A stretch of DNA of 64,000 nt from Chloroflexota bacterium (GCA_022561215.1 JADFRQ010000011.1:1068-65067); one strand, 5' to 3'. Positions 10,188 to 54,440 are shown, counted from the first letter of the stretch. Notes: generated by a model not told the origin, from the sequence alone. Translations and numbers: made by a program.

Positions 10188-10223
10188 GCATTCTTTTCGT
10201 TATTTTTGGAGGAACACTAACCG

Positions 10224-11276: not shown

Positions 11277-11305
11277 TTCGCAAACCATTACTAAGCACAA
11301 ATTTC

Positions 11306-11335: not shown

Positions 11336-11348
11336 GTCATGCAGCCTC

Positions 11349-11422: not shown

Positions 11423-11557
11423 CTCTAAAATAAAGGCGTTGGATAGGAGTGCGAACGCTCAATTTTGCCCTTAGCATCCTCTTCTCTTAATTTTGGGAGC
11501 AGAGAGCAGGGGGATTTGCAGAGATCTCCATCCAAAGGGGGAGCGCTCATCGCTATC

Positions 11558-12052
11558 TCAACCGGCGTAATGCCAGCCAACTGTCGGCAAGGTAAGCGAA
11601 TCTTTATCCTCCCCGTCCTTCATATTTCCCGCACCAACAACTTCACCAAGTATGATATTGTGGTCGCCACCAAAATCATAGATTTCTTTCACCCTGCACT
11701 CCAGGTACGCGGCCGCACCATCAATAATTGGACAGCCCGTTTCCGGAGCAGCTGAATATTTTACATTATCCATCTTCGCCGCGTTCTTATCACGACTTTT
11801 GGAGAACGATTTTACAATCTCCTGATCTTCCTTCAAAAACAAATTGACGGAAAATACACGGCCCTGGTTGACCAAGCCGTAGGAATAGGACGTTTTTTGC
11901 AAGCCAAAGGCCAGTAAGCGCGGCTCAAAAGAGACTTGCGTGATCCAATTAGCGACCATGGCATTTGCGTCCTCGCCATTTCGGCTGGTTACTACATACC
12001 ATCCATAGGGCATTCTGCGCAATACTTCTTTGATTTTATCCTCGGACATCAA
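11558..12052 (-). CDS. Flavin reductase-like (FMN-binding split-barrel) protein
   Basis: MPYGWYVVTSRNGEDANAMVANWITQVSFEPRLLAFGL is typical of the flavin reductase domain. GAAGGAG RBS upstream. Confidence 0.75.
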   Translation of the reverse strand: MMSEDKIKEVLRRMPYGWYVVTSRNGEDANAMVANWITQVSFEPRLLAFGLQKTSYSYGLVNQGRVFSVNLFLKEDQEIVKSFSKSRDKNAAKMDNVKYSAAPETGCPIIDGAAAYLECRVKEIYDFGGDHNIILGEVVGAGNMKDGEDKDSLTLPTVGWHYAG

Positions 12053-16485: not shown

Positions 16486-17604
16486 ATGCAGGCAGCGGAA
16501 AAAGGAAAATATTGGATCGGCTTTAATCGGGTTACCGGTATCGGGCCGATGCGGTTGAGGACACTACTCGACTTCTTTGGCAATGTTGAGGCTGCCTGGA
16601 TTGCTCCTCGGCAAGCGCTGCGTGAGGCGGGATTGAATGTTAAGCTTGTGGAGAGCCTGCTCAAAGCGCGAGAATCTTTGGATTTGGACCAGGAACTCGC
16701 AAAATTGGATCAGCTGGGAATAGACTTGATCACATGGGAGGACGAGCGTTACCCCGATAGATTGAAGGAAATTGACGCTTCTCCCCCCGTTCTTTATGTA
16801 AGTGGGTCGCTGGAGCCCATTGATCGCTATGCCGTGGCCATTGTTGGAACCAGGCGCTTATCACCTTATGGTGAAATGATCGCGCGTGAAATTTCTAATG
16901 GACTAGCTTCCAATGGTATTACGATCGTCTCCGGGCTCGCACGCGGCATCGATGGCATTGCTCATCAAGGGGCACTCGAGGTTGGCGGACGCACGTTGGC
17001 AGTTCTTGGTTCTGGGCTGGATCGCCTATACCCATCCAATCATCGCAAATTGGCGCATGCTGTCAAAGAACGCGGTGCCGTTCTTAGCGATTACCCACTG
17101 GGAACCGCGCCGGAGGCGAGGAACTTTCCTCCCCGCAATCGAATCATCTCTGGTCTATCGCTGGCCGTAATTATTGTTGAGGCAGGTGAAAGTAGTGGGG
17201 CGCTAATTACGGCCAATTTCGCCGCCGAACAGGGCAGGGATGTTTTCGCGGTGCCCGGAAATATCCACAGCAGGGCCAGCAAGGGGACCAATCGATTAAT
17301 CCTAAATGGTGCGATTCCTTTTCTCTCGATTGTCGATGTCTTGGAAGCTCTTAACCTTGAACTTATTGCACGTCAGGAACAGGTAGAGGATTATTTGCCA
17401 GAAGATGATGTTGAGCGTGTAGTTTACGCAAAGCTTTCGTCGGAACCAATTCATGTCGATGAATTACAAGTGCAATGTGATTTACCAGTATCAAAGATTA
17501 CGGCTTCGTTGGCGATGCTGGAATTGAAGGGTCAAGCCCGGCAGGTTGGAGGCATGCATTACATTCGCGCACGGGAAACACAAGCGGCCTACCGGGTGGA
17601 ATAA
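16486..17604 (+). CDS. dprA: DNA-processing protein DprA (Smf)
   Basis: Rossmann-like core GTRRLSPYG...SGLARGIDGIAHQGALEVGGRTLAVLGSGLDRLYP...PPRNRIISGLS, and a C-terminal winged-helix region. Confidence 0.9.
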   Translation: MQAAEKGKYWIGFNRVTGIGPMRLRTLLDFFGNVEAAWIAPRQALREAGLNVKLVESLLKARESLDLDQELAKLDQLGIDLITWEDERYPDRLKEIDASPPVLYVSGSLEPIDRYAVAIVGTRRLSPYGEMIAREISNGLASNGITIVSGLARGIDGIAHQGALEVGGRTLAVLGSGLDRLYPSNHRKLAHAVKERGAVLSDYPLGTAPEARNFPPRNRIISGLSLAVIIVEAGESSGALITANFAAEQGRDVFAVPGNIHSRASKGTNRLILNGAIPFLSIVDVLEALNLELIARQEQVEDYLPEDDVERVVYAKLSSEPIHVDELQVQCDLPVSKITASLAMLELKGQARQVGGMHYIRARETQAAYRVE

Positions 17605-17606
17605 TA

Positions 17607-18701
17607 ATGGAAAATTTCTACGCGGCAATAATGGCAGGAGGGGGAGGCACTCGATTATGGCCACTTTCGAGAAGACATCGCCCGAAACAATCCCTGCGGC
17701 TCGTGAGCGATAAAACATTATTTCAAATGGCGCTGGATCGATTGGGCCCGCTAATTCCAGCGGAGAGAATTTACGTCATTACGGTCGCCGATCAAGCCGC
17801 ACAGTTGCAAGAAGACGCGCCTCTTATCCCAAAAGCCAACTTCATCGTTGAGCCTCAACCCCGGGGCACGGCTTCCGTCGTCGGTTTGGCGGCAATCCAT
17901 TTGGAAATGCAGGACGAAGAAAGTGTGATGGCGGTGCTTACGGCTGACCACATTATTCGCAACGAAGAAGCATTCCGTGAGCTTTTGCGAACGGCATTCG
18001 AGATAGCGAGTTCAGGAGAATTGGTCACGCTCGGGATATCCCCAAATTATCCCACGTCAGGATATGGTTATATTCGCAGAGGGGAAAAGCTGGGTGAAAT
18101 TAGGGATCGAGAATATTACCGCACGATTGAGTTTAAGGAAAAGCCATCGATCGAAGTAGCCACTGAATATGTGGGCAGCGGTAATTACTCCTGGAACTCA
18201 GGGATGTTTGTGTGGAAATCTGCGCGAATTCTTGAGGAAATTGCATTGCACATGCCCGATTTGGCGGGTGGCCTTAATCAAGTAAAAACTGCGCTGGGAA
18301 CTGAAGCGCAACAACCAGTACTCGAAGAAGTTTGGGGAAAATTGCAGAATGAAACCATAGATTTCGGAATTATGGAGCATGTTGCCAAGTCGGTTGTCAT
18401 ACCCGCAGACGATTTAGAATGGTTTGACATCGGCGGATGGGAGCGGCTTTTCGACATTTTTCCAGTCGACGAGAACGGCAACTTGCAGCTTGCCCAAGAA
18501 TCGATAGTACTTGACACCTATAATTCATTAATTTTCCAAGGTAAAACAAAGACAGACAGGCTATTTGCTTTATTGGGAGTCAGTGATCTAATTGTCGTCG
18601 ATACAGGCGATGTTGTGCTAATAATCCCCCGCTCAAAAGCGGAGGAAGTAAGGAAAATTGTGGGAATGTTATCGGAACAAGGGAAAAGTAAATTTATCTA
18701 G
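17607..18701 (+). CDS. Mannose-1-phosphate guanylyltransferase-like sugar nucleotidyltransferase
   Basis: N-terminal AIMAGGGGTRLWPLSR...PKQ signature, then GYGYI and WNSGMFVW motifs. Confidence 0.8.
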   Translation: MENFYAAIMAGGGGTRLWPLSRRHRPKQSLRLVSDKTLFQMALDRLGPLIPAERIYVITVADQAAQLQEDAPLIPKANFIVEPQPRGTASVVGLAAIHLEMQDEESVMAVLTADHIIRNEEAFRELLRTAFEIASSGELVTLGISPNYPTSGYGYIRRGEKLGEIRDREYYRTIEFKEKPSIEVATEYVGSGNYSWNSGMFVWKSARILEEIALHMPDLAGGLNQVKTALGTEAQQPVLEEVWGKLQNETIDFGIMEHVAKSVVIPADDLEWFDIGGWERLFDIFPVDENGNLQLAQESIVLDTYNSLIFQGKTKTDRLFALLGVSDLIVVDTGDVVLIIPRSKAEEVRKIVGMLSEQGKSKFI

Positions 18702-18714
18702 CAGGAGTTTATTG

Positions 18715-21069
18715 GTGGAAGCGTATTGTGTAAAGTGTAAACAAAAAAGGCCGGTGCAAGATCCACAGGCCACATTTACGTCAACAGGAACACCCGCGAC
18801 CAGGGGAGTTTGCCCGGTTTGTGGGACGAAATTATTTCGCATGGGGCGCACGTCTGCTCATGATGGGCTGGAACCAGAGAAAGTTGTCCGCAAACCACGT
18901 AAACGTAAAAAATTGAAAAATGACAAACCTAGAAAAGGGAAACTGGTCATCGTCGAATCTCCTGCGAAAGCGAGGACCATCGCCCGATATTTGGGCAAAG
19001 AATTTTCGGTGCGTGCCTCCATTGGGCATGTGCGTGATTTGTTAAGATCGCAAATCTCGGTGGATGTGGAAAACGGGTTCATCCCAAAATACAGGGTCCC
19101 GAACGAAAAACGGGAAGTCGTAAAGGAGCTTAAGGCCGAGGCCGCTGCAGCAGAAGAAATTTACCTGGCAACCGATCCAGATCGAGAAGGCGAAGCGATA
19201 GCTTGGCACCTTATCGAAGCAGCAGAAATCGATGATGGCCGCGCGCTCCGGGTTGTGTTTAATGAAATCACTCAGAGCGCCATAGATGAAGCGTTCACCA
19301 AGCCACGTGCCATTGATATGGATCTGGTTAACGCACAGCAGGCCCGGCGAATTCTTGACCAATTGGTTGGCTATAATTTGAGCCCTCTTCTCTGGGCGAA
19401 GGTGAGAAGTCGCTTGTCCGCGGGGAGGGTGCAGTCGGTTGCACTGCGGCTTATTGTCGACAGAGAGAAGGAAATTCGTATATTTGAAGCCCAAGAATTT
19501 TGGACAATCGATGCCGATTTTCTGCAGACCGAAAAGCCACCTGAATTTCGAGCGCGTCTTGTTGCTATCGATAAACAAAAATCGGAGTTTGGGTCCGAAG
19601 ATGAAGTAAACGTTTTGCAGGAAAAATTGCGCAGTGCACGTTATTCGGTACGCAAGGTTAAACCGGGAACGCGTGCTCGGCGTCCTGCGGCCCCATTCAT
19701 AACGAGCACTCTACAGCAGGCCTCATCGAATCGATTGCGTTATTCGGCGAGCAAAACAATGGCAATCGCACAGCAACTTTATGAGGGAATTGAGCTTGGG
19801 GAAGGCGATCCAACCGGGCTGATAACCTACATGCGCACGGATTCCACACAGGTTGCCAAACAGGCCCAAAATGAAGCCAGGGAGCTAATTCGTGATTCCT
19901 TTGGTGCAGAGCATGTTCCCGATGAGCTTCCAATCTATAAAACAAAAACCAAGCGGGCACAGGAAGCGCATGAGGCGATTCGGCCCACGTCAGTAAGGAA
20001 AGAGCCGGAGAAGATAAAAGAGTTCCTTAGCAAGGACCAGTACAAGTTATACGACTTGATTTGGAGACGTTTCATTGCATCACAAATGAAACCAGCGCAA
20101 TACGACACCCTCACCATTGAAATCGAGGGTCAAACGGTTGACCAAAATTTTCTCTTCCGAGTTTCAGCTTCAAGCATAAAATTCACAGGATTTACAGAAG
20201 TTTATGCGTTGCGTACGAAGAATGATGGTTCCTCGAATGGAAGGGACCAGCTGGAGGCAAAAATGGCTCGCTTGCCTGCGTTAGCGGTTGGTGATCCAGT
20301 GGATTTGGTTGAATTATTTCCGGAACAGCATTTTACTCAGCCCCCAAGTCGATATTCCGATGCCACTCTCGTTAGAGCGCTTGAAGATAACGGCATTGGT
20401 AGGCCATCAACCTACGCGCCGATTCTTTCCACGCTACAGCGTCGAGGGTATACGGAGAGAAAGCAACTTAAGTTGTATCCCACGGAAATTGGAGAGGTCG
20501 TAAATGATCTCATAGTCGACCATTTTCCGGACATCGTCGACCTTGGGTTTACGGCGCGCATGGAAGAAAATCTCGATAAAATCGCTCTGGGTCAAATACC
20601 CTGGGTCGAAATCGTCAGAAATTTTTATGGTCCTTTTGCAGAGCAGGTTGAGAAGGCACGCGAGCTAATGCCCGAAGTGAAAACAGAACCTGAAATACTT
20701 GATCGCCTCTGTCCTGAGACCGGGCATCATCTGGTTGTGCGTCATGGACGTTACGGGAAGTTTATCGGGTGTTCTGATTTTCCGACCTGTCGATACACAG
20801 AACCTTGGTTAGAGAAGATTGGCGTGCATTGTCCGCAATGTGCGGAGGGCGAACTTGTGGAAAGACGAACGCGCAAGGGCAGAGTTTTTTACGGCTGTTC
20901 TCGTTATCCTGAATGTGATTTCACCAGCTGGAAAAGACCACTCCCCAATCCATGCCCGCACTGTGCAGGGTTATTGGTGGTAGATAATAAGAGCCACGCG
21001 GCATGTTTAGCTTGTGGGAACCAATTCGAATTGGAAATGTTTGAAGAACATGAGGATCAATTGGCATAG
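18715..21069 (+). CDS. topA: DNA topoisomerase I with an extra N-terminal zinc ribbon and three C-terminal C4 zinc fingers
   Basis: TOPRIM LVIVESPAKARTI and DPDREGEAI, active-site YMRTDS. C-terminal CPETG..C..C, CPQC..C..C and CPHC..CLAC. AGGAG at 18703-18707 precedes GTG 18715. Confidence 0.95.
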   Translation: MEAYCVKCKQKRPVQDPQATFTSTGTPATRGVCPVCGTKLFRMGRTSAHDGLEPEKVVRKPRKRKKLKNDKPRKGKLVIVESPAKARTIARYLGKEFSVRASIGHVRDLLRSQISVDVENGFIPKYRVPNEKREVVKELKAEAAAAEEIYLATDPDREGEAIAWHLIEAAEIDDGRALRVVFNEITQSAIDEAFTKPRAIDMDLVNAQQARRILDQLVGYNLSPLLWAKVRSRLSAGRVQSVALRLIVDREKEIRIFEAQEFWTIDADFLQTEKPPEFRARLVAIDKQKSEFGSEDEVNVLQEKLRSARYSVRKVKPGTRARRPAAPFITSTLQQASSNRLRYSASKTMAIAQQLYEGIELGEGDPTGLITYMRTDSTQVAKQAQNEARELIRDSFGAEHVPDELPIYKTKTKRAQEAHEAIRPTSVRKEPEKIKEFLSKDQYKLYDLIWRRFIASQMKPAQYDTLTIEIEGQTVDQNFLFRVSASSIKFTGFTEVYALRTKNDGSSNGRDQLEAKMARLPALAVGDPVDLVELFPEQHFTQPPSRYSDATLVRALEDNGIGRPSTYAPILSTLQRRGYTERKQLKLYPTEIGEVVNDLIVDHFPDIVDLGFTARMEENLDKIALGQIPWVEIVRNFYGPFAEQVEKARELMPEVKTEPEILDRLCPETGHHLVVRHGRYGKFIGCSDFPTCRYTEPWLEKIGVHCPQCAEGELVERRTRKGRVFYGCSRYPECDFTSWKRPLPNPCPHCAGLLVVDNKSHAACLACGNQFELEMFEEHEDQLA

Positions 21070-41804: not shown

Positions 41805-42773
41805 TCATAGGAGATGGGCACCATTGCCTTGAGCGCAGAGGATGACTTCCTGAACTCCAGGAAGTTTTTTGAGTCTATGTTCCACCTCGTTGGCTGATGC
41901 AGGTGTACAAAGACAGTGTACATTCGGTCCCGCGTCGATCGTATAACACACCTCCAGTTTTTCTGATTGCCACGATTTGACCGCTTGCATAATTCGTACC
42001 GTCTCCGGAGTCCAGTAGAGCAGCGCTGGAGTGGAGGTCTGCATGACAGAGTGCATTAAATTGCTGTCTAATTCGACAATTTGGCACAATAACTCAAAAT
42101 CCTTGTCCTTAATCGCTGCGCGGCATAAGGCCAGGCGTCGTGGAGTGTCGGAAACTCTGGCCGTCTGCAAAGGACTGCTCTCGGCGATTTTATGGCCGCG
42201 CGTCGATCCGTAAGGCTTCTCAGATTGATCAACAAGAGCGATTAAATCCATTAACTCCCAATCTTTTCCAATTGATAAAGGCTGGGAAAAGGAGTCTGCA
42301 TCGTCTGTTCCCACAAACCATTCGACGAAAGCACCGTAAAGCGATCGACATGCAGAACCGGAACCGCGGCGAGCGATTCTTGAAAGTGTTTTCGTATCCA
42401 AATCCAATCCGGCGGCCTGGGCGGCAGCCACACTAAGCGCCGCAAAAGCCGCCGAAGAGGAGGCAATTCCAGCAGCAATTGCAAAATTGGAAGAGCTAGT
42501 CACTCTTGCGAGGTGATGCGTGTTGGCAAGGGAGCGAATATGGTTTAGGAGGTCGGATACGCGATCTGATGCACGTTTTGATGCTTTTTGACCATTAATA
42601 AACAGCTCATCAGCGCTTAAGTGGGAGTCAAATTGCACAGTGGTTTGGGTTTCTAATCCGGCCAATGTCATTGAGATCGAACCATTCGAAGGCAAGCGCA
42701 GGGTGTGATCTCGGTTCCCCCAGTATTTGATTAGAGCAATATTAGGGTGTGCTATAGCTGTAACGGGGTTCAA
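41805..42773 (-). CDS. mvaD: (Di)phosphomevalonate decarboxylase, GHMP kinase superfamily
   Basis: NIALIKYWGNRD N-terminal signature, GIASSSAAFAAL (GHMP motif II-like) and RRGSGSACRSLYG. Confidence 0.85.
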   Translation of the reverse strand: MNPVTAIAHPNIALIKYWGNRDHTLRLPSNGSISMTLAGLETQTTVQFDSHLSADELFINGQKASKRASDRVSDLLNHIRSLANTHHLARVTSSSNFAIAAGIASSSAAFAALSVAAAQAAGLDLDTKTLSRIARRGSGSACRSLYGAFVEWFVGTDDADSFSQPLSIGKDWELMDLIALVDQSEKPYGSTRGHKIAESSPLQTARVSDTPRRLALCRAAIKDKDFELLCQIVELDSNLMHSVMQTSTPALLYWTPETVRIMQAVKSWQSEKLEVCYTIDAGPNVHCLCTPASANEVEHRLKKLPGVQEVILCAQGNGAHLL

Positions 42774-44137: not shown

Positions 44138-44198
44138 GTTTGTTTCAATCTCCTAAGGTTTTCGCGCTCGCTCGCTGCCAACAAAATATGAGGGGAGG

Positions 44199-44272
44199 GG
44201 TGGCTGAGGGGATTTGAACCCCCAACCGCCGCATCCACAGTGCGGAGCTCTGCCTGTTGAGCTACAGCCACC
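44199..44272 (-). tRNA. tRNA-His (anticodon GTG) with encoded G-1
   Basis: Hand-folded on the minus strand: G(-1)+GTGGCTG/CAGCCAC acceptor, anticodon stem CCGCA/TGCGG with loop CTGTGGA, T-arm GGGGG-TTCAAAT-CCCCT, discriminator C. CCA is not encoded. Confidence 0.9.
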
Positions 44273-44292: not shown

Positions 44293-45570
44293 TTAAGTAG
44301 TTGCCCGCTCAAGCGACCTGCGCAAATGTTCGATGAGATCATCCTGATTTATCTGATCCTGTTCCCCGCTCTTGAGATTTTTTAAAGCGACAATTCCATT
44401 TTTTGCTTCATCCGGGCCTAAAATGAGCGCAAATGGGATCCCCTGTCGATCTGCGTATTTGAACTGCCGATTGAGGCGATGGGGCTCGGGATACCATTCT
44501 GCTTTTATTCCCGCCGCCCGAAGTTTCGCGGCGAGAGAAAGCGTTTCGTTGCGAAGATTTTCTTCAAAATAAATGACCAGAATATCGGAGGGGTTTACTT
44601 GTAATTCCGGTAATAAAGAATAATTCTCAAGTACAAGGCGGAGGACAACATCCCCCATAGCAAATCCAACACCGGGAAGTGATTGGCCGCCAACTTCGGC
44701 GACAAGATTGTCGTATCTGCCTCCCCCCAATATTGCTCGCTCTGATGCACCGATATCGCGAGCTTCAAAAACGGTTCCAGTATAGTAGTCTAGTCCTCGT
44801 ATGACGGTAGGATCGTATTGAAGATATTTTGATATATTAAGCGCATCAGCGGCAGCAAAAAAAGCGCTGAGTTCTTCGGAATCTGCCCATGCCTCCTCCC
44901 TGGCAAGTATGCTCTTAATTCGATTTACCTCATTCGGATCAAATCCTAGTTTTTGGCCGTACTCCTGCCATTTTTGAATCCCCATCTTGTCTTTGCGGTC
45001 GATATATCGAAATATTTGGGAATACTGCGCCGCGGGAAACCCTGCACGGTTAAGCTGGGATTCCATCAGGTGTCTATTGTTGATAAAGATGCGCACTTGG
45101 TCTGAATTAAGATTCAATTTCTCAAAAAAAGCCGCCAGCACAGCGACAATTTCGGCATCTGCCTGAGCCGAATCGACCCCGAGTAAATCGATATTCCACT
45201 GGAAAAATTCTCGGCTGCGGCCTCGCTGAGGTTTTTCATAACGCCAAAATGGCCCGAAAGACCACCAGCGAATGGGAGGTTGAAGGTTTCTGCCAAGTGC
45301 GGCTACCATGCGGGCAAGCGAAGGGGTAAGCTCAGGGCGCAAGACGATCTGTTCGCCACCTCGATCTTCGAAAACGTAGGCTTGTTCCCTTACAAGTTCA
45401 TCCCCTGATTTAGCTGCATACAATTCAAGGCGTTCCAAGAAAGGAGCCTCGTATTCTTGATAGCCGAAAGACTCGGATACCTGGCGGATAGCGCCATGCA
45501 GCCATGTTCGGAATGCCATATTTTCGGGATAATAATCTCGGGTTCCCTTAACGGGCTTAATCATACGCAT
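44293..45570 (-). CDS. hisS: Histidine--tRNA ligase
   Basis: KGTRDYYP, class II motif 2 FGPFWRYEKPQRGRSREF, motif 3 region GGGRYDNL, and a C-terminal anticodon-binding domain. Confidence 0.95.
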   Translation of the reverse strand: MRMIKPVKGTRDYYPENMAFRTWLHGAIRQVSESFGYQEYEAPFLERLELYAAKSGDELVREQAYVFEDRGGEQIVLRPELTPSLARMVAALGRNLQPPIRWWSFGPFWRYEKPQRGRSREFFQWNIDLLGVDSAQADAEIVAVLAAFFEKLNLNSDQVRIFINNRHLMESQLNRAGFPAAQYSQIFRYIDRKDKMGIQKWQEYGQKLGFDPNEVNRIKSILAREEAWADSEELSAFFAAADALNISKYLQYDPTVIRGLDYYTGTVFEARDIGASERAILGGGRYDNLVAEVGGQSLPGVGFAMGDVVLRLVLENYSLLPELQVNPSDILVIYFEENLRNETLSLAAKLRAAGIKAEWYPEPHRLNRQFKYADRQGIPFALILGPDEAKNGIVALKNLKSGEQDQINQDDLIEHLRRSLERATT

Positions 45571-45579: not shown

Positions 45580-46023
45580 TTAAGGGATAATCGAAGCGTT
45601 ATTTTGGGGGAGCTGCACGACCGGATCGCCAACCCGAATCGTCCCTTCCTCGAGCACGCGCACCAACAGACCTCGCTCGCCATCAATATCATCGCGCATT
45701 CCGGGATGAAGTTCGTTGAGCATATCGCATGGCTTGCAGTCGGTTGTAACTTCGAGCAAAGTATCGCCAATACGGAGTAGGGATCCAGATTGGATAGCTG
45801 AAAGTTGCATGCCGGAAACAACAAGATTCTCCCGCAAATCACCTGGGTTAACCTTAAAGCGCTTCAGAATTGATTGCTCTACGATGAGGATCTGTCTTTT
45901 CTTTTTGCCATACGATGCGTCCCCTATGATTCCTTCGTACGCTATCGTCTGCAGGTCGGCAACTTGATGCATCGGTTGACCATGGTTCCGTTTAATAAAT
46001 AAATTTTCTACTTTTCCACTCAT
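45580..46023 (-). CDS. MOSC-domain protein
   Basis: Beta-barrel MOSC pattern RQILIVEQS...PGDLRENLVVSG...LRIGD..LEVT..C.PC. AAGGAA RBS precedes the internal ATG 46023, and the longer ORF reaches 46092. Confidence 0.8.
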   Translation of the reverse strand: MSGKVENLFIKRNHGQPMHQVADLQTIAYEGIIGDASYGKKKRQILIVEQSILKRFKVNPGDLRENLVVSGMQLSAIQSGSLLRIGDTLLEVTTDCKPCDMLNELHPGMRDDIDGERGLLVRVLEEGTIRVGDPVVQLPQNNASIIP

Positions 46024-46108
46024 GACAGTTCCTTTGAGCTGATTTGGGTTTTCCAGCGTGATATGCTTATACGATATTTGCGTTAAAACCAATGACTAAG
46101 GTAGATCT

Positions 46109-47641
46109 ATGGCCGGCCTGCCTATCATGTTTCTTCTCCTTACGGCAATTCTACTCTGGCTCATACGACGAAGCCATATCCGTGTGCTCTGGATGGTGTC
46201 GCTAGCCGGAGTGTTTGCTTCCTGGATCAGCATCCTAATCCTAACATACGCACTTCCTTTGCAATTTGTTTTCCTTCGCGGGCAAACCGACACACATAAT
46301 ACGATTCTAAGGCTGGATTTAACTTCCTGGCCGTTTGTTCTCATCCTGTCCACTTTGTTCCTTTCGTCGCTGCTGAGCACATTTACCAATCGCAATGAGT
46401 TCGCATGGAAGTTTGCGTTTCAATTTATGGTTGTGGCAGCTGCAGGTTTGGCTGCCGCAATGGCAGGAAATGTCTTAAGCTTTGTATTAAGCTGGTCTGT
46501 TCTTGATTTAACAATCCTCGCCATCGGTTTGAATAACGCACGAGATGAATCCGAATGGATGCAAGCGATCCAAAAATTCGGGTTTAGGGCAGCGGCAATA
46601 ATACTTCTGATGGTGGCCGAGTTATTGAATCGAAACGCAGGCGGAACGGAAGATCTGAGGGACATTCGTTCTTTCGCGGTTTTCGGATGCCTATTTATCG
46701 TTTTGCTGCTTCGGTCAGGAAAATTTGGCAAAGATGTGAGCTTGGGAAAATGGCAACCCCCTGCGCTCTCAATGCAGGCGATCTTATCCAGAGTCGCCGC
46801 GTTTTCTCTGCTTGCGCGTGTGTTAACTTCGTCCTTTCATCCATCCATTATTGCTGAACTTAGAATCGCAGGGGTGGCATTCGCGGGCTGGGCGATCGCC
46901 GCTTTGTTGATTAACGGGCAACTCCGGAAGAAAAGGGTTGATCCGGGACTCATTTTTCTAGGTGTAGTCCTACCTATGCAGGCGCAATCTCTGCATTCGC
47001 CCGAGCCGATCGCGGTAAACATGGGAGTCCTATTAATACTTTTGGCAGGGGCGTCTCGTAATCTTAAAACGAGTCGAACCTGGCACATGGTTATCATTGG
47101 CACGCTTGCCCTAATGATTGTCGGAATGCCAGGCTCATTCGGAAGTGCACTTATCCGAATGGCAACACGCATCATTCAAAGCCAAAACCTGGTAGGCTTT
47201 TGGTTGCTTGCTCCGCTGGTACTTATCCTATTTGGGTCGCGAATCATCGTGCAAGGGCTCGATACCATTAAGGAATTTGATTCCCGGGCTGCAGGGCCAT
47301 CCGTGCGAGCCACTTTCGCGATGCTCCTGCTGCCATTTTCGGGCTTTGCCACTTTAATGGTTGACCGTCCGATTACACTGGCGGGAGCTCCAATTTTTAT
47401 CGCTATGGTAGGCGCAATGATAATCAGCCTAATTGCGTTACGCCGGCTCAAAATTATTCCCCACGCCAATCATTATTCCGAATTGATTTCTCGGACGCTC
47501 CGCCCGCTCATAAGAGGAATGTTCCTTCTGTTTCGTCAAGTCGTTCACGGTTCTGCGGTTCTATTTGAAGGTGAAACCGGGATGTTATGGGTTTACGTGA
47601 TATTGCTTTTTTTGTTCGTAACGTTTGGCATCTTGAGCTAA
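46109..47641 (+). CDS. Polytopic membrane protein (510 aa, about 14 TM), possibly a degenerate antiporter-like (NuoL/HyfD-type) subunit
   Basis: Almost entirely hydrophobic. The N-terminal third is laid out like PF00361 proteins (LDLTSWPFVLILSTLF..., FMVVAAAGLAAAMAGNVLSFVLSWSVLDLTIL), but the PxHxWLP signature is absent. Coupled to the next gene by TAATG. Confidence 0.6.
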   Translation: MAGLPIMFLLLTAILLWLIRRSHIRVLWMVSLAGVFASWISILILTYALPLQFVFLRGQTDTHNTILRLDLTSWPFVLILSTLFLSSLLSTFTNRNEFAWKFAFQFMVVAAAGLAAAMAGNVLSFVLSWSVLDLTILAIGLNNARDESEWMQAIQKFGFRAAAIILLMVAELLNRNAGGTEDLRDIRSFAVFGCLFIVLLLRSGKFGKDVSLGKWQPPALSMQAILSRVAAFSLLARVLTSSFHPSIIAELRIAGVAFAGWAIAALLINGQLRKKRVDPGLIFLGVVLPMQAQSLHSPEPIAVNMGVLLILLAGASRNLKTSRTWHMVIIGTLALMIVGMPGSFGSALIRMATRIIQSQNLVGFWLLAPLVLILFGSRIIVQGLDTIKEFDSRAAGPSVRATFAMLLLPFSGFATLMVDRPITLAGAPIFIAMVGAMIISLIALRRLKIIPHANHYSELISRTLRPLIRGMFLLFRQVVHGSAVLFEGETGMLWVYVILLFLFVTFGILS

Positions 47642-48246
47642 TGAATGTTCCTCAATACCTGGCCCCCTTGCTTTCCATCATCGCCGGCGTAAGCGCAGGC
47701 CTGATTACGGTTCTTGATGATCGTCGGTATGGACTTGGGATGATGGCTCTCCAATATTTCTGTGTCTCCATTTTCGCCGGCCTATTTATTTCCATGAGCG
47801 TAATGCCCTTGAAATTGATCGGTGGAACGTCGGTAATATTGATCATGTACCGGAGCGTTGGCCAACTGGGTTGGAAACAAAATGGCCGTGCGGAGGAAAA
47901 TCTTCCCTCCGGAAGATTGTTCAGGATTATCGCCGTCCTACTGCTCATTACGGGTTCGCTGGGCATAGGTCGAACTCTTTTTAGCGGGCTGGCGAATATT
48001 CAGCCCGTGGCAATTTCTTCCTTCTTGCTGCTAAGCGCACTCGGATTACTGCAGCTAAGCCTCAAGGAAGGTCCATTCGAGGTCGCACTTGGCCTTTTTA
48101 CCTTGATTAATGGATTTGAACTCATCTACAGTTCATTGGAATCTTCGCTAGCCGTTCTGGCGCTCCTGGCTTTGACGCATATTGGAATAGCCATTGCGAT
48201 TAGCATCATCGCGATTGATGTTGCCCCTGGTCTTGAGGGAAGGTGA
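47641..48246 (+). CDS. Six/seven-TM membrane protein (201 aa), HyfE/NuoK-like (tentative)
   Basis: Size, TM count and membrane-embedded acidic residue (TLINGFELIYSSLES) recall HyfE/NuoK-type subunits. Its start overlaps the upstream stop and its stop overlaps the downstream start. Confidence 0.5.
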   Translation: MNVPQYLAPLLSIIAGVSAGLITVLDDRRYGLGMMALQYFCVSIFAGLFISMSVMPLKLIGGTSVILIMYRSVGQLGWKQNGRAEENLPSGRLFRIIAVLLLITGSLGIGRTLFSGLANIQPVAISSFLLLSALGLLQLSLKEGPFEVALGLFTLINGFELIYSSLESSLAVLALLALTHIGIAIAISIIAIDVAPGLEGR

Positions 48247-49652
48247 TGAACGCGTCTCTGCTCACTTTTTCCATTACCGGGATTGGCATTTTGGTGCAAG
48301 TATTTACTCGGAAGCGGCATTTATTGGCTTCATTGTTATCCAGCACCTTCGCGTTTCTAATTGCGATTTTTATTTTTTCTATCCCCATGGATCGCGCTTT
48401 CACATTGATGGGCGCCTCTATACGCGTCAACAGCACATGGCAAATCTTTGGACGCTCCCTTGTCCTGGATGAGTTTAACCGCCAGGCAGTAGGATACTTA
48501 TATCTGATTGGCGGCGCGATCTTGGGTTCGGCCTGGATTTCAAAACCGACACGGATGTTTCACCCACTAGGATTGGCTATTCTTGCTCTCGTTGCCGCGT
48601 CACTGATGGTGGTTCCCTTTCTCTTCGCAGCAATATTCCTTGAACTCGCGGCAATTACTTTCCTGCTTGTCCTTTCCACAAGGACAATCGGCACGGCGCG
48701 CAGCGGGTTGAGGATGCTGATATTGTATACGTTGGCAATGTTGGCGATCTTGTTTGCCGGGTCGATGATTGAACTATCCGGGATGAGTGATTTGAGTGTC
48801 ATCCTGCTGGATACTCGGGTCAGCATTCTTCTCGCATTTGGATTTGCGATCTTATTAAGTATTCCTCCATTTCATGCATGGTTGCCGATGGCCGCCGGCG
48901 AAACCCATCCGTTTGCCATCGCATTGGCATCCACCGTCCTTCCGGCGGCCGGTCTATTTTTCGTTTTACGCTTTTTTGGAGCGTTATCCCTGGCGGTAAA
49001 TGAATCCAATCTTCTGGAGATCATTCGTATTTTCGGGGCGACCACCGTCTGGGTAGCTGCACTTTGGGGGGCCAGTCAAAAAAGCTTCGCAAAAATGGCT
49101 GCCTATGCCACTGTATCGGACTTGGGGGTGATGCTCATTGCCGTCGGGCTTGGATCTGAGCAAGGTATTCGTCTGGCATTGGCAATTACCGCCGCGAGAT
49201 TTGTAGGGTCCCTATGCCTGGCAATTGGGCTTGCAAATAATTCCGACAAACATCGATTTAATCCACAGGAGGGGGAGCCGATTGATGCAGCGCTCCCACC
49301 AAATAGCGCTGCCAGATTGGTGACCTTCCTTGGGACTGCTTCCATCGCTGGATTGCCACTTACCGCTGGATTTCCTGCGAAATGGCGCCTGTTGCAGATC
49401 CTTGCCACCGGAACGGCCTATGCTTGGATCTCGATTATGGTTGCAATGTTTATCTTTGGGTTTCGAATTCTGCGATTTGCGCAAAAATATAGATCAAACG
49501 GTCCAGTGAATGACGGCGCACAATCGGATGCGAAAATAACTGTGTTTCTCTACGCCGCTATTTTTCTGACTTTCGCATTCGGATTGGTTCCGCAAGTACT
49601 TAATCGCTGGATTGAGCATACAGTTATGGGTTTGGGTCTCTTAATCCCTTGA
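48243..49652 (+). CDS. Proton-conducting-membrane-transporter family (NuoN/HyfF/MrpD-like) subunit, divergent
   Basis: PF00361-like hallmarks: FLELAAITFLLVL (TM5 Glu), LSIPPFHAWLPMAAGETHPFAIALAS (PxHxWLP..E..P) and QKSFAKMAAYATVSDLGVMLIAVG. The start could be GTG 48243 or ATG 48246. Confidence 0.7.
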   Translation: MMNASLLTFSITGIGILVQVFTRKRHLLASLLSSTFAFLIAIFIFSIPMDRAFTLMGASIRVNSTWQIFGRSLVLDEFNRQAVGYLYLIGGAILGSAWISKPTRMFHPLGLAILALVAASLMVVPFLFAAIFLELAAITFLLVLSTRTIGTARSGLRMLILYTLAMLAILFAGSMIELSGMSDLSVILLDTRVSILLAFGFAILLSIPPFHAWLPMAAGETHPFAIALASTVLPAAGLFFVLRFFGALSLAVNESNLLEIIRIFGATTVWVAALWGASQKSFAKMAAYATVSDLGVMLIAVGLGSEQGIRLALAITAARFVGSLCLAIGLANNSDKHRFNPQEGEPIDAALPPNSAARLVTFLGTASIAGLPLTAGFPAKWRLLQILATGTAYAWISIMVAMFIFGFRILRFAQKYRSNGPVNDGAQSDAKITVFLYAAIFLTFAFGLVPQVLNRWIEHTVMGLGLLIP

Positions 49653-49696
49653 CGGATTGAGGGAATGCTATAATCGCACGAAATGGAGCAACAGGT

Positions 49697-50875
49697 ATGG
49701 CGGAAGATCGATTAGAAGGTCGAATTGATTGGCTGGATAAACAACGACGCAAGGATGCAGACCGCATCAAAACCTTGCAAGAAAAAGTTGCAAAGGCAGA
49801 GAAATTGCTTGCCAAGCAGGCAAAGCAGGTGAAAGAGGCAGTGAGTGAAATAGCACGTATATCGGCTCAAGCCTCGCAAATTCGTCAATTTGACGACGCG
49901 GTGGCGAATCTGAGAGCAGATTTTTCCCGGCAATTGCAGGGCCTAGTCGAGAGCCAGCAGAAGCGTGATACGCGCTTGGAAAAAATTCGCAACGCCGAAA
50001 GAGAAATGGCGTCAAAGTCGGTTGAGGAGCTGCGTTTAGAGTTAAAACAGCTGCAAGATATCCGCCAAACACTTGAAACTCGCAGGCATGAAGAAATTCG
50101 CATCAGTCGGGAATTAAATACCATGGAGAAAAAATTTGATGAAATTAAGCTCCGGGAAGAGGGGCTTTCAAGATCAATAACAACGAGTGAAGATTCTAGA
50201 CTTGAAGGTGCAAAGCGCCTGGCTGAATTGCAATCGGAATCAACCGATTTGAGAAAGAAAATTGAGTCGCTCCGCGGGCTTGTTGATACCGTTGAAGACC
50301 GCTCAAGAAGATTTGAATCGTTCATTGCTGAGCTAACGGAGAATGAGAACAATCGTCGAGAGGATCAAAACATCTGGATCGAGCAGCAAGAACTCGGTCG
50401 CGTTAGTTTCGAAAAGGAATGGAAGCATTGGCTCAAAAGTTTTGAGGCTTTTAAGGGGCTTGCCGAAGAATCTGATATTCGAATGCAAATGTATGACGAA
50501 AATTACAGGGCGATGAAGAAGACGAAAATCGATCTTGAAAAAATCCTTGATCGCCTGGAGCGCAGGATCTCGGAGATTTCTGAAGTTCAGCGCATAGCTG
50601 AGGACAAGATAAAAAGCGATTGGTCGATGTTCCAAGCGGATGACATGAAGCGTTGGAACACTTTTCAACTGACAAATGATGAACAATGGAAGGAACATGA
50701 TAGGCTGCACGAAAAACTAGGGCGCGATATTGGCGAGATGAATGAGAGTCTTGTTAAAGGGTTGGCTGTCCTTGAAAATTTATCGGAAAGTGGGCGCCGC
50801 CAGGTGACGGATCTTTTGAATATTGTCCGTCAATGGGCAGCGGAACAAGAAAGGCAAATGGAGCAGGTTAAGTAG
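49697..50875 (+). CDS. Soluble coiled-coil protein (392 aa), function unknown
   Basis: Charged heptad-like sequence throughout (E/K/R/L/Q rich) with no TM segment. GGAG sits 8 nt upstream of the ATG. Confidence 0.6.
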   Translation: MAEDRLEGRIDWLDKQRRKDADRIKTLQEKVAKAEKLLAKQAKQVKEAVSEIARISAQASQIRQFDDAVANLRADFSRQLQGLVESQQKRDTRLEKIRNAEREMASKSVEELRLELKQLQDIRQTLETRRHEEIRISRELNTMEKKFDEIKLREEGLSRSITTSEDSRLEGAKRLAELQSESTDLRKKIESLRGLVDTVEDRSRRFESFIAELTENENNRREDQNIWIEQQELGRVSFEKEWKHWLKSFEAFKGLAEESDIRMQMYDENYRAMKKTKIDLEKILDRLERRISEISEVQRIAEDKIKSDWSMFQADDMKRWNTFQLTNDEQWKEHDRLHEKLGRDIGEMNESLVKGLAVLENLSESGRRQVTDLLNIVRQWAAEQERQMEQVK

Positions 50876-50915: not shown

Positions 50916-52808
50916 ATGAGGGTTCTCGGTACAGCCGGACACGTCGATCATGGGAAATCTACACTTGTCCTCGCACTTACAGGTATTGATCCAGATCGTC
51001 TGCAAGAAGAAAAAGACAGGCAAATGACAATCGATTTGGGATTCGCCTGGATGACGCTGCCTGAAAGCGGAGAGGTAGGAATCATTGATGTTCCCGGGCA
51101 TCGAGATTTTATCGAAAATATGCTCGCTGGCGTTGGGGGGATCGATGCCGCCATGTTGGTGATTGCCGCGGACGAAGGTGTCATGCCGCAAACGAGAGAA
51201 CACTTCGCCATTCTTAATCTGTTGGAGGTCCCGCGGGGCGTAATCGCATTGACCAAAATCGATCTTATCGAGGATGAGGCCTGGCTGACCATGGTGAGCG
51301 AGGAAATCAAGCAGCTTACGAGCAACACATCGCTTGCGAACTGGCCCATCGTACCCATCTCGGCGCAGGAGAAGCGCGGACTTGGCGAACTTCGAGAAAA
51401 GCTTGATCAAATCCTGTCCACCACAAAGGCCCGATTGGATATTGGGGCACCACGCCTGGGAATCGATCGCGTATTTTCGATAGCGGGATTTGGCACCGTG
51501 GTTACGGGCACCCTGAGCGACGGGGCGTTTGAAGTAGGCGAGGAGATCGAAATTCTTCCGCGAGCTTTTTCTGGAAGGATTCGGGGACTGCAGACCCACA
51601 AAAATTCCGTTGAAACCGCAATTCCAGGAGGGCGGACGGCAATCAATATCTCGGGACTTGATGTTAGTCAGATTCAACGTGGAGATGTAGTCGTTTTGCC
51701 GAATTCACATCAACCAACAACGATGCTGGATGTTCACTACCGTCATCTGCATGACAATGAACTTTCGATCAAGCACGATCAAGTCGTAAAATTCTATATC
51801 AGCGCATCGCAGCGCTCGGCGAGGATTCGACTGCTGGGGACAGATGAAATCAGGCCTGGAGAGGAGGGTTGGATTCAACTAATCTTGGACCAGCCGGTTG
51901 TGGCAATGCGCGGTGATCATTTTATCCTAAGAAGACCTTCTCCAGGGTTGACTTTGGGTGGCGGCGTCATTGCCGATCCCCACCCGTCTCGCAGACATCG
52001 ACGATTTACTTCCGATGTTGTAGAGAAGCTTGAAAACCTGATACGTGGCGGCCCGGCGGAAATATTGGCCCATTCGTTACGATTGCTTGGCCCGGCTAAA
52101 TTCGAGGACATCCTCAAACACGCGAATCTTTACGAGGATCAAATTTCTGGAGCACTTGCGCAACTCGGGGATCAAGGAGCTATCATTTTCTTGGGCAATA
52201 TCCAATCGGATCCAGATCCTTCAGACATTGCCATTCACATCGATGCCTGGAATGTGCTTTCGGAAAAAATATTGAAGACCTTAGGCGGCTATCATACAAA
52301 ATTCCCCCTTCGTTTTGGCATGTCACGCGAAGAGCTAAAAAGCCGATTAGGATTGAGCACTACGATTTACAATCATGTCCTCCTTCACATGGCTTCGCAA
52401 AATACGATTGATCTCAACAAATCGATTGTAAATGTCGCTGAATTTCAACCGACTTTGACCTCGGGCCTACGCAAAGAAGAGGCTGCGCTGTTGAATAAGT
52501 TTAATTCCGAACCGATGCGACCCCCCTCGGTTAAGCAAAGTATTGAACAAATTGGTGAAGAGCTTTACAACTATTTGCTGGCCAGCGATCAGCTTATCCA
52601 GGTATCTACGGAAGTTGTTTTCGCTCGGGCTGCTTATGAAATCATGCTCGACGAAGTGCGGCAGTTCCTGAAAAAAAACGATTCCATTACCGTGGCAGAG
52701 TTAAGAGATGCCGTCGGCACATCCCGGAAATACGCCTTGGCATTCATGGAACATCTGGATAGTATCGGAATCACGCAGCGCGAGGGAGATAGTCGAAAAT
52801 TGGCGTAA
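50916..52808 (+). CDS. selB: Selenocysteine-specific translation elongation factor
   Basis: G-domain GTAGHVDHGKSTLVLALTGIDPDRLQEEKDRQMTIDLGFA, DVPGH and TKID. C-terminal winged-helix signature VAELRDAVGTSRKYALAFMEHLDSIGITQREGDSRKL. Confidence 0.9.
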   Translation: MRVLGTAGHVDHGKSTLVLALTGIDPDRLQEEKDRQMTIDLGFAWMTLPESGEVGIIDVPGHRDFIENMLAGVGGIDAAMLVIAADEGVMPQTREHFAILNLLEVPRGVIALTKIDLIEDEAWLTMVSEEIKQLTSNTSLANWPIVPISAQEKRGLGELREKLDQILSTTKARLDIGAPRLGIDRVFSIAGFGTVVTGTLSDGAFEVGEEIEILPRAFSGRIRGLQTHKNSVETAIPGGRTAINISGLDVSQIQRGDVVVLPNSHQPTTMLDVHYRHLHDNELSIKHDQVVKFYISASQRSARIRLLGTDEIRPGEEGWIQLILDQPVVAMRGDHFILRRPSPGLTLGGGVIADPHPSRRHRRFTSDVVEKLENLIRGGPAEILAHSLRLLGPAKFEDILKHANLYEDQISGALAQLGDQGAIIFLGNIQSDPDPSDIAIHIDAWNVLSEKILKTLGGYHTKFPLRFGMSREELKSRLGLSTTIYNHVLLHMASQNTIDLNKSIVNVAEFQPTLTSGLRKEEAALLNKFNSEPMRPPSVKQSIEQIGEELYNYLLASDQLIQVSTEVVFARAAYEIMLDEVRQFLKKNDSITVAELRDAVGTSRKYALAFMEHLDSIGITQREGDSRKLA

Positions 52809-52835: not shown

Positions 52836-54440
52836 CTAAAAAGTGCGGTATCGCCATTGACCTGCCACCATCGTTGCGCAAGGCTGAATTCTGTACAAAT
52901 GATTGGGATCGACGTCAAAAGGATTTTCTTCCAGCACGATCAGATCGGCGTAATAGCCGGGTTCAATTTTTCCTAATTCATGTTCGCGATAGGAAGCATA
53001 AGCCGGGCCAAATGTATAAGCACTTATTGCCTCTGCCAGTGTAATCTTTTCCTTTGGAATCCAGCCTTCGCCCCCATCCTTTTGACCCACCTTTTTGCGA
53101 GTTACCGCGGCGCTTATTCCCAAGAATGGATTGGGGCTCTCTACTGGAGCATCTGATCCAAATGCCAGCACGGCGCCGGAGTTCAGCAAGCTGTTCCATG
53201 CGTAACTGAGATTTGATCTGTCGCCCCAAAACCTATCCGCCATTTCCATATCCGAGATAGCGTGAATAGGTTGCATGGAGGCGATAATATTAAGTGCCGC
53301 GGTCCGATTGATGTCCTGAGGATGAACGAGTTGCAAGTGTTCAATGCGGTGACGAAGCTTGGGCAGACCTAGCGCGGCTTCGGCCTTGCGCAGGGCATCA
53401 TAGGCATTCAGCACCACATGATTTGCTCTATCGCCAATCGCATGAATGGTGAGCCCAAACCCCGCCTGCGCCGCGCGCAAACCAAGCGCTGTGATTTGCT
53501 CATCATCTAAAAGCAACATTCCGAGATTATTTTCTTCCCCTACATAAGTTTCAAGCATGGCAGCCGTTCGCGGGCCCAACGCGCCGTCCGAGAAAATCTT
53601 GATATTGCCGAATTGCAACATGGAATTTCCAAAACCTGGAGCCAGCCCAATCGCCAGCGCCTCACTTAACTTATCCACGGGAATGTTCTTTAACACCCGC
53701 AATCCAAGCTGGCCTCGCCGCTGGAGGCGTTGATAGGCCCGAAAACAATCTGGACCATCGAAATCGTGAACGCCCGTAAGCCCCATAACCCAAAGATTTT
53801 CCTGGGCAGTCAAAATTAATTCGGCCAGCTCTACTTCGGATGGATAGGGAATGGTTGCAGCAACAAGCCGCATTGCATTTTCAAATAATATTCCTGTGGG
53901 GTTGCCTTTGGAATCTCTCTGAATTTCGCCACCAGCTGGATCGGGAGTACTCGAATTGATCCCTGCTAACTGCAATACTTTGGAGTTGGCCCATCCGGCA
54001 TGGAGTGACTTTGCCGTGAGGTAGATGGGGTGCGCTGTAGAGATTCTGTCCAAATCGTGAGAGGTGCCATACCTCGTCCAGAAGTTCTGGTTCCAACCAT
54101 GGCCAAGAATCCAACGCTGGGGGGCGGTTTTCGCCACGCGCACTTTCACCCGCTTCAAACATTCATTTATTGAAGATGTCTCACAATCAATCATATTTAT
54201 GGATTGCGCATACTTGCTCATATGAATGTGGGAATCCGTAAACCCAGGCAAAATACAGCGCTGATCGAGATCGATACGTTCAATTTCGGATGGAAAAGAT
54301 GAAATCCACTCAGTCGTATTGCCGACTCCCACGATTCGATCATCGCGGATGGCCATCGCCGAAGCGCTGGGGAAATGACCATTGAGGGTCAATATTTTTG
54401 CATTATGCAAGAGCAGGGTAGGTTGTCTTGATTTGATCAT
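52836..54440 (-). CDS. Amidohydrolase-3 family metal-dependent hydrolase
   Basis: PGFTDSHIHM metal-binding motif, then HAIGD, HLQLV and FGSDAPV motifs in TIM-barrel order. Confidence 0.85.
   Translation of the reverse strand: MIKSRQPTLLLHNAKILTLNGHFPSASAMAIRDDRIVGVGNTTEWISSFPSEIERIDLDQRCILPGFTDSHIHMSKYAQSINMIDCETSSINECLKRVKVRVAKTAPQRWILGHGWNQNFWTRYGTSHDLDRISTAHPIYLTAKSLHAGWANSKVLQLAGINSSTPDPAGGEIQRDSKGNPTGILFENAMRLVAATIPYPSEVELAELILTAQENLWVMGLTGVHDFDGPDCFRAYQRLQRRGQLGLRVLKNIPVDKLSEALAIGLAPGFGNSMLQFGNIKIFSDGALGPRTAAMLETYVGEENNLGMLLLDDEQITALGLRAAQAGFGLTIHAIGDRANHVVLNAYDALRKAEAALGLPKLRHRIEHLQLVHPQDINRTAALNIIASMQPIHAISDMEMADRFWGDRSNLSYAWNSLLNSGAVLAFGSDAPVESPNPFLGISAAVTRKKVGQKDGGEGWIPKEKITLAEAISAYTFGPAYASYREHELGKIEPGYYADLIVLEENPFDVDPNHLYRIQPCATMVAGQWRYRTF

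Follow-up and report, generated by a model that had tools for sequence, protein, structure and literature searches.

A class-wide orphan antiporter-like gene trio linked to a coiled-coil gene and selB in Chloroflexota

What could antiporter-type membrane proteins be doing in a genome region that encodes no catalytic partner for them? This question is raised by four genes, here called A, B, C and D, which occupy positions 46109-50875 of a stretch of 64,000 nucleotides from a Chloroflexota bacterium (GCA_022561215.1 JADFRQ010000011.1:1068-65067); this whole stretch is referred to below as the window. Complex I, the Mrp antiporters, membrane-bound hydrogenases and the DAB and Cup CO2 pumps all have antiporter-like subunits as their engines, and the long-distance coupling by their chain of lysine and glutamate residues together with a lateral helix is still debated. 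An initial annotation, made from the sequence of the window, had read A, B and C as a trio resembling HyfD, HyfE and HyfF, followed by a coiled-coil accessory gene (D) and by selB, and had proposed that they could form an undescribed coupling system. We find that the trio is a class-wide orphan: a small antiporter module that has lost the canonical lysines, contains a new small subunit, shows a conserved linkage to the coiled-coil gene and selB, and represents a previously undescribed variant. No description of this cluster was found in the literature by full-text searches, one of which was poorly targeted.

The proteins of the trio

Gene C (48243-49652, + strand) encodes a divergent antiporter-like protein of 469 amino acids (aa), which is the size of NuoN and MrpD. 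The protein scores 70.2 bits against PF00361 (Pfam cut-off 21.5), but only 27-56 bits against the NCBIfam models of NuoL/M/N, MrpA/D and HyfF, the cut-offs of which are 264-1104 bits. Because these scores are far under the cut-offs despite the match to PF00361, C can be assigned from its sequence to the PF00361 superfamily and to none of the named families. When a profile of 22 C relatives was searched against the PDB sequences, the best matches were MbsH' (6u8y_X, 112 bits) and Escherichia coli NuoN (100 bits), and MrpD chains were matched as well. About 90 homologs of C were found, with lengths of 444-480 aa; metagenome pipelines label them "NADH-quinone oxidoreductase subunit N" or "formate hydrogenlyase subunit 3 / MnhD".

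The profile alignments allowed us to locate the functional positions of the canonical subunits in C. The segment "vafgvKagmfPlHvWaP" stands opposite "GfailLavpPfhsWlp", so that the lysine of transmembrane helix 7 (TM7) is a leucine (L204) family-wide, and "GFasKW" stands opposite "GFparw", so that the TM12 lysine is an arginine. The leucine had been noticed by eye in the initial annotation, and the alignments to MbsH' and NuoN bear this out. Among 70 relatives, the base of TM12 (motif GFPxR/KW) is arginine in 61 and lysine in five (66 of 70 together), while the TM8 column contains glutamine in 47 and proline in 19, proline being the residue in the window. Two further charged residues, D293 and R319, are near-invariant in this set. 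The PPFH motif is retained and the TM5 glutamate, E134, is present in 64 of the 70 relatives, which together with the PF00361 score fits the earlier description of C as a partly degenerate member of this family.

Gene A (46109-47641, + strand, 510 aa) had been described as having the layout of an antiporter-like subunit but no signature motif. It has no match in Pfam or NCBIfam, and PF00662 was not detected. An hhalign comparison of the A family (57 sequences) with the C family (70 sequences) yielded a probability of 96.4% and an E-value of 1.2e-9 over 385 collinear columns (96.2% with a deeper A alignment), and in hmmsearch the A profile matched MbsH' with an E-value of 2e-4. The AlphaFold2 (AF2) model of A, built from 58 sequences, has a predicted local distance difference test (pLDDT) score of 85.8 and a predicted TM-score (pTM) of 0.86; in a Foldseek search this model matched 187 PDB chains (E < 1e-3), led by NuoL, ND5 and MrpA (probability 1.0, TMq up to 0.70). 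The profile-profile comparison and the predicted structure thus agree with the earlier description, and show A as a very degenerate subunit of the type of NuoL and the N-terminal domain of MrpA (MrpA-N), with all signature motifs lost. Its family has 296 representatives among 1.84 billion proteins.

Despite the loss of motifs, some positions of A are kept. In TM5, the position of Asp133 carries an acidic residue in 57 of 58 sequences; Asp133 occupies the column of the TM5 glutamate in the hhalign alignment but lies one helical turn off in the hmmsearch alignment. Arg202, invariant in all 58 sequences, falls exactly on the canonical TM7 lysine column in the hhalign alignment. Asn121, several tryptophans and a near-invariant C-terminal hinge (E487-G488...W494) are also conserved, while no conserved base was seen at TM8 or TM12 in the 58 sequences and Ile349 occupies the TM12 column. 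Helix 453-487, comprising 35 residues, is strongly amphipathic, its hydrophobic moment (1.39) exceeding that of every other long helix and its mean Kyte-Doolittle value being 0.37, and is followed in the AF2 model by a hydrophobic terminal TM helix, 489-506. We infer that these two helices correspond to the lateral helix HL of NuoL and MrpA, shortened to the length of one subunit, plus its anchor. The model also contains beta strands at 51-56 and 65-69 (hairpin 51-69), which, judging from the secondary structure, may correspond to the canonical beta-hairpin.

The comparison of A and C with the canonical subunits concerns residues of known importance, since LysTMH7 and LysTMH12 of Mrp and complex I are "absolutely conserved, essential" (PMC7419157). 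In the trio, the proton-carrying lysines are replaced family-wide: the TM7 position is Leu204 in C and Arg202 in A, the central lysine or histidine of TM8 is glutamine or proline in C and has no conserved basic counterpart in A, and the TM12 lysine is mostly arginine in C and is missing in A. With the trio mapped onto the canonical scheme, the polar axis of the antiporter fold would be kept in outline, with leucine, glutamine or arginine in the places of the proton-hopping lysines.

Gene B (47641-48246, + strand, 201 aa), the small middle gene, encodes a membrane protein whose family has no known relatives. It matches nothing in Pfam and NCBIfam at E <= 1, and a profile of 24 sequences retrieved nothing relevant from the PDB sequences at E <= 10, the lone hit being an ATP synthase subunit b chain (E 0.32). 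The AF2 model (pLDDT 87.8) has seven helices and no Foldseek match at E < 1e-3, with the best TM-score, 0.44, for a mycobacterial NuoJ. An hhalign comparison with E. coli NuoK gave a probability of 0.6%, and the sole stretch aligned was LLTxLaGFEILYaa opposite LLFMLIGLEIMINA. The initial annotation had taken B for a HyfE/NuoK-like protein; this was unsupported in every test, and the likeness comes down to a single motif, GFEILY versus GLEIMI. HyfE, NuoK, MrpC and NuoJ were all rejected as identities of B, the model searches, the profile search of PDB, hhalign and Foldseek being negative or non-significant, and so was the possibility that B arose by internal duplication or is a piece of A or C (hhalign 2% or less).

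In the B family, Y39, G158, F159, E160 and E167 are invariant, the two glutamates being present in 56 of 56 sequences each, and R29, K58, R95 and Y163 are near-invariant. E160 is the glutamate of the motif NGFELIY which had been pointed out at the outset. The 173 homologs of B in the database are all from Chloroflexota and are all annotated as "hypothetical protein" with no Pfam domain. B is a new seven-helix protein with two invariant glutamates.

Gene order and its conservation

The four ORFs (open reading frames) were reread from the sequence and lie on the same strand at the positions first assigned to them. ABCD are genuine genes and not chance ORFs, as the best homologs have E-values of 1e-274 (C) and 1e-284 (A) and the families comprise from about 90 to at least 300 members. 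The stop codon of A, TAA (47639-47641), and the start codon of B, ATG (47641), share one base (GAGCTAATGAAT). The stop codon of B, TGA (48244-48246), lies inside GTGATG, and C starts either at GTG 48243 or at ATG 48246 (GGAAGGTGATGAAC). The resulting overlap of 4 nucleotides (nt) between B and C is possible in 66 of 84 related loci, and therefore the translational coupling itself is conserved; the overlaps are as described initially, and the three genes form a conserved unit chained at the level of translation. Two near-identical assemblies of one related locus differ in this region (L001 7911-10004 and L002 7825-10004): A and B were called as one ORF of 697 aa in the former and as ORFs of 520 and 206 aa in the latter, which reflects a frameshift or assembly difference and no true fusion.

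Downstream of C, a gap of 44 nt, with GGAG ahead of the start codon, leads to D (49697-50875, + strand), and selB (50916-52808, + strand), the fifth gene of the conserved block, starts 40 nt past the D stop codon at ATG 50916 (MRVLGTAGHVDHGKS) and not at TTG 50823. The previously noted succession of the 44-nt spacer, the coiled-coil gene and selB is therefore correct, and both genes are conserved neighbours in relatives. No convincing terminator-like site was found within the stretch from A through selB; one such site is located 3' of selB at 52945-52960. Because of this, a single transcript from A to selB is plausible.

The distribution of the trio was assessed by a scan of species-representative GTDB genomes with C, which gave at least 482 matching stretches. 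The best 80 of these, for which taxonomy was considered, were all from Chloroflexota, mostly Anaerolineae, with one metagenome-assembled genome (MAG) labelled Limnocylindria. C homologs at 25-45% identity keep the order A-B-C amid very different neighbourhoods. Of the loci examined from the C side, 63 extend 3.5 kb or more beyond this gene in the downstream direction; D was present in 61 of them and directly adjacent to C in 59, and selB directly followed D in 59 of the 61. Metagenome loci examined from the D side had C directly upstream in 47 of 49 cases and selB directly downstream in 54 of 54; when both sets are combined, D has selB as its immediate successor in 113 of 115 loci. Even where the C proteins are most divergent (the bin under 32% identity), 18 of 19 loci had D behind C and 16 of 19 had selB behind D, whereas hisS was found upstream in 0 of 15 and the amidohydrolase gene downstream in 1 of 16. 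The A-B-C-D-selB linkage is kept in a bin from which these two flanking genes are almost gone, and therefore the block outlasts general synteny. The four-gene order whose conservation across Chloroflexota had been proposed as a check is thus retained.

Gene D encodes a soluble coiled-coil protein of 392 aa, a length shared by 20 of 60 relatives. Its motifs rich in tryptophan and arginine are well conserved (RLxWLDEQRRKD; LERRIxEIxEMQRLxEDRFKQEWxxFxADDQKRW...DEQWREH). Comparison with Pfam, PDB and PADLOC revealed generic coiled-coil similarity only, and assignment of D to a known family was rejected, as the matches were designed coiled coils, tetherin, SMC, and the arms of LmuB and JetC. The selB product, in turn, is a genuine selenocysteine-specific elongation factor: it scores 346 bits against TIGR00475 (cut-off 242) and contains the GTP_EFTU, beta-barrel, and winged-helix 2 and 3 domains (PF09106, PF09107 and PF25461 present). 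The linkage to selB is conserved operon architecture and, by the neighbour counts, D is linked to selB at least as tightly as to the ABC trio.

A catalytic partner was sought in the same regions. The annotated genes of the window (about 146-62380) are all housekeeping and include no nuo, hyd, fdh, mrpE-G or dabA genes; the trio, whose neighbours are hisS, a MOSC-domain gene, D and selB, contributes the only three membrane genes in this neighbourhood, and related loci are alike in this. No redox, hydrogenase, formate dehydrogenase, Mrp E/F/G or DabA partner is found nearby in about 140 related loci, no Q-module or hydrogenase subunits (NuoB/C/D/H/I-like) and no FdhF are encoded within +/-8-10 kb where the gene tables of related loci were read, and the DabA domain (PF10070/DUF2309) is absent both from the window neighbours and from the related loci. 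The initial statement that no catalytic partner is in reach consequently holds for the window and for about 140 related loci.

Two other candidate explanations of the neighbourhood were rejected. One was a conserved catalytic neighbour. In the clade of the window, an Amidohydro_3 gene (52836-54440, - strand) follows selB; in a divergent clade (L065 3683-5604, L082 4265-5791, L085, L068, L072 and L081), a dihydropyrimidinase/D-hydantoinase gene (TIGR02033, 515-537 bits) lies directly upstream of A on the same strand and is often preceded by an HPPK gene. As these are different families at different positions, they were judged to be clade-specific synteny. The other was a role in anti-phage defence: PADLOC gave no match for A-C, and the fixed chromosomal position across the class also argues against such a role.

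Upstream of A, the divergent MOSC-domain ORF (45580-46092, - strand) has a longest form of 170 aa with a TTG start, 16 nt from the start of A. Its homologs are about 123 aa long (L003), so the real start is probably further in, and the divergent intergenic region would then be about 150 nt. This region would hold the sole promoter-like match, a weak sigma-70-like match on the + strand at 45976-46005, in or near the MOSC gene; it agrees at 9 of 12 positions, in a region that scores fewer matches than its shuffles, and is a lead only. Further upstream, tRNA-His (44197-44271, - strand) lies directly downstream of hisS (44293-45570, - strand), a pairing which recurs in many related loci. A diphosphomevalonate decarboxylase-like gene (41805-42773, - strand; MVD-like_N, MDD_C), which points to a mevalonate-pathway enzyme, is syntenic in related loci together with genes for an M50 protease and a HEAT-repeat protein and a Mem_trans gene. 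At a larger distance, topoisomerase I with an N-terminal DUF5679 is encoded at 18658-21069 (+ strand), with dprA (16486-17604) and a nucleotidyl transferase gene just upstream, and a T-box leader (RF00230, 96 bits; 4652-4915, + strand) precedes a gene for a class I aminoacyl-tRNA synthetase of 1122 aa (5193-8561; tRNA-synt_1, Anticodon_1, DUF5915). No known RNA elements were found in the A-selB block; the T-box and two tRNAs are the only ones in the window, and they lie elsewhere.

Possible function and alternative explanations

The residues and the gene order described above can be combined into a model of the trio, for which the structure of Mrp provides the template. In Mrp and complex I, each coupling point combines the GluTMH5/LysTMH7 pair of a subunit with LysTMH12 of the adjacent one; in Mrp, a cation tunnel at the MrpD/MrpC interface is lined by GluTMH5, and MrpA braces the complex by its amphipathic helix HL (PMC7419157). 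We propose, with confidence that is about evenly balanced, that ABC forms a stand-alone Mrp-core-like membrane complex which is no canonical proton pump and which may bind, conduct or sense a cation at the interface of B and C; the homology statements taken alone are held with high confidence. The trio would derive from the antiporter module common to Mrp, complex I and the membrane-bound hydrogenases, and would operate without a partner of the redox, hydrogenase or carbonic-anhydrase type. With Mrp and complex I as a guide, the subunits would be arranged as B-C-A. Glu134 in TM5 of C would face Glu160 and Glu167 of B, recreating a cation or coupling site of the MrpD/MrpC or NuoN/NuoK type, while the Asp133/Arg202 pair of A would face the TM12 arginine or lysine of C, and the 35-residue amphipathic helix of A with its last TM helix would clamp C in the manner of an HL spanning one subunit. 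A cation (H+ or Na+) could thus be bound, conducted or sensed at the acidic B-C interface, with A serving as a fixed-charge brace. Arginine is unable to shuttle protons, and therefore the trio is unlikely to pump protons in the canonical way or to carry out 2H+/Na+ antiport. Of the initial proposal, the idea of an undescribed coupling system may stand, but the replaced lysines argue against ordinary proton pumping.

D is the most likely candidate for a cytoplasmic partner of ABC, because it is co-operonic with the trio, though it is equally tied to selB. For the same reason, only part of the earlier claim of a coiled-coil accessory is retained: D is a conserved neighbour, whereas its role as an accessory of the trio is one reading among several. 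In an extended version of our proposal, the trio would be a transducer responding to ion-motive force or voltage, specific to Chloroflexota and based neither on redox chemistry nor on antiport, in which fixed arginines have taken the place of the proton-hopping lysines and ion binding between B and C would drive or gate a conformational change passed on to D and from there to a process co-regulated with SelB; we regard this version as speculative and doubtful.

Several observations weigh against the Mrp-core-like complex proposed here. The subunit order, the lateral orientation of the C-terminal helix of A and the B-C interface are all drawn by analogy, and this analogy may itself be mistaken, as no relationship of B to NuoK, MrpC or NuoJ could be detected. 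The positive-inside rule would place E160 and E167 of B near the outer face and not in the middle of the membrane. A minority of C relatives have no TM5 glutamate, and the C protein of the window itself has a lysine, Lys380, at TM12. A diverges very fast, with about 20% identity within the class, which also fits a purely structural role. Furthermore, every junction of the block is broken somewhere, ABC and D-selB being separable. C and D-selB are apart in L059 and L066, with D staying with selB; D-selB occurs with no ABC in L089 and L129; and ABC occurs with no D in L007 and L067. In addition, ABCD occurs with no selB in L005 and L069.

As to the structure of these exceptional loci, the inserts in L059 (9383-11990) and L066 (about 9300-11800) comprise about 2.5 kb, and the insert in L059 holds two glycosyltransferase-like genes on the opposite strand, from which it follows that ABC and D-selB are separate transcription units there. 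In L089 (3984-8000), hisS, an opposite-strand gene of 536 aa and an opposite-strand gene of 180 aa are followed by D, and neither this region nor L129 (1-2745) has an A, B or C gene upstream of D.

The rapid divergence of A leads to an alternative in which ABC transports no ions at all and its fold is used as a membrane anchor or platform for D, with a possible role in the envelope, the septum or the filament architecture of these filamentous bacteria. Such a scaffold would explain why the Grotthuss-competent lysines have been lost family-wide, why A keeps mainly tryptophans, one Asp/Arg pair and the C-terminal hinge, and why a long, conserved coiled coil lies beside the trio in 59 of 63 loci; one distant trio, moreover, adjoins ftsK. 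We consider it rather unlikely, as the two invariant glutamates of B, the residues E134, D293, R319 and R380 of C and the proline motifs of the broken helices suggest that a polar axis is maintained, D has no membrane segment or known cytoskeletal domain, and the trio is found with no D in some genomes. The broken junctions, for their part, would be expected if the genes were neighbours by descent, with ABC as one unit and D-selB, or D and selB separately, functionally unrelated to it within an old housekeeping operon. No junction is intact in all loci, and the D-selB pair is the tightest of all; this explanation is nevertheless unlikely in our view, since in the most divergent bin the block persists where hisS and the amidohydrolase gene have almost disappeared, that is, the linkage outlasts synteny.

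The near-constant position of selB directly after D could also mean that the trio and D import or handle selenium species, or serve the synthesis or insertion of selenoproteins, one version being the link to the Hyf partner FdhF which had been suggested initially. PF00361 modules are established to energise vectorial chemistry, as in DabAB. This explanation appears very improbable. No selA, selD, fdh or hydrogenase gene was found in the window or in the gene tables of related loci, which leaves the FdhF link with no formate dehydrogenase gene in any locus, and no tRNA-Sec was found in the window or in the 51 loci scanned for tRNAs. The absence of selB from two loci that have ABCD also speaks against it, and a comparative-genomics survey of selenium-linked genes includes no such proteins (PMC5322559). 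One of A-D being itself a selenoprotein, which would explain selB, was rejected as well: in-frame TGA codons are not conserved in any of the four genes, the four sporadic cases lying at alignment edges or in frameshifted contigs. Finally, the automatic names of C (NuoN; formate hydrogenlyase subunit 3/MnhD) would suggest ordinary NuoL/M/N, MrpA/C/D or HyfD/E/F paralogs belonging to a complete operon elsewhere in the genome. We give this hardly any credence, as C does not exceed 56 bits against any of the named models, A and B match none, the essential lysines are replaced, and about 140 loci have the trio as a separate unit amid unrelated neighbours.

In the interpretation favoured here, the trio is a natural minimal module, made up of one L-type brace, one N/D-type subunit and one small acidic subunit, which is maintained under selection in hundreds of species. 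It is thus a ready-made "mutant" for separating the structural from the catalytic features of the antiporter module. The analysis also flags the families A, B and D, now annotated as "hypothetical", and shows that the automatic names of C (NuoN, MnhD, formate hydrogenlyase subunit 3) are misleading for the metabolic reconstruction of Anaerolineae, for example when complex I or hydrogenases are predicted from MAGs.

Comparison with known systems

The closest known system is the Mrp core, consisting of the N-terminal domain of MrpA, MrpD and MrpC (PDB 6z16, PMC7419157). Like Mrp, the trio has two antiporter-like subunits, one of the NuoL/MrpA type with a putative amphipathic brace helix and anchor and one of the MrpD/NuoN type, and it has no redox module; by analogy, its small polytopic subunit would place key polar residues beside GluTMH5 of the MrpD-type subunit. 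Foldseek pairs A with 6z16_A, 6z16_D and an MrpA-MrpD model. Unlike Mrp, which has seven (or six) subunits, the trio has no MrpB, E, F or G and no C-terminal (NuoJ-like) domain of MrpA. B is unrelated in sequence to MrpC, a protein with three TM helices and His37/His40; the positions of LysTMH7, 8 and 12 are Leu/Arg, Gln/none and Arg/none in C/A; the putative brace helix has only about 35 residues; and A has no PF00662 match at its N-terminus.

The distal membrane arm of complex I (the whole arm being NuoL-NuoM-NuoN-NuoK/J/A) is next closest, as the fold of A resembles NuoL/ND5 (the top Foldseek matches) and C resembles NuoN (100 bits). The acidic small subunit would adjoin the TM5 glutamate of the proximal antiporter-like subunit, comparable to E36/E72 of NuoK. 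In contrast to complex I, no NuoH/A/J/K and no Q or N module is encoded nearby, there are two antiporter-like subunits only, and the key lysines are replaced. B also differs from NuoK in having seven helices and in carrying its two glutamates seven residues apart, presumably near one membrane face, instead of mid-membrane on two helices.

With HyfD-HyfE-HyfF of hydrogenase 4, the trio shares the large/small/large order of membrane genes with the PF00361 member last, and this was the basis of the initial analogy. The analogy fails at the level of the proteins and the loci: B matches no NCBIfam model at E <= 1, which covers any HyfE-type model in that library, C reaches 46 bits on the HyfF models (cut-offs 543-951), and no hyfA/B/C/G/H/I, hyc or fdhF gene, nor any other hydrogenase or formate dehydrogenase gene, is present in any locus. 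What DabAB/MpsAB, which act as vectorial CO2 pumps, share with the trio is a PF00361 protein that serves a purpose other than respiration and whose gene is accompanied by one for a soluble partner but by no redox module. There is, however, no DabA (PF10070) beside the trio, and the coiled-coil protein that is its soluble neighbour shows no catalytic motif; DabB is generally reported to retain the canonical charged residues. As the defining features of Mrp, complex I, Hyf and DAB were tested and did not apply, the trio is not a member of any of these four systems.

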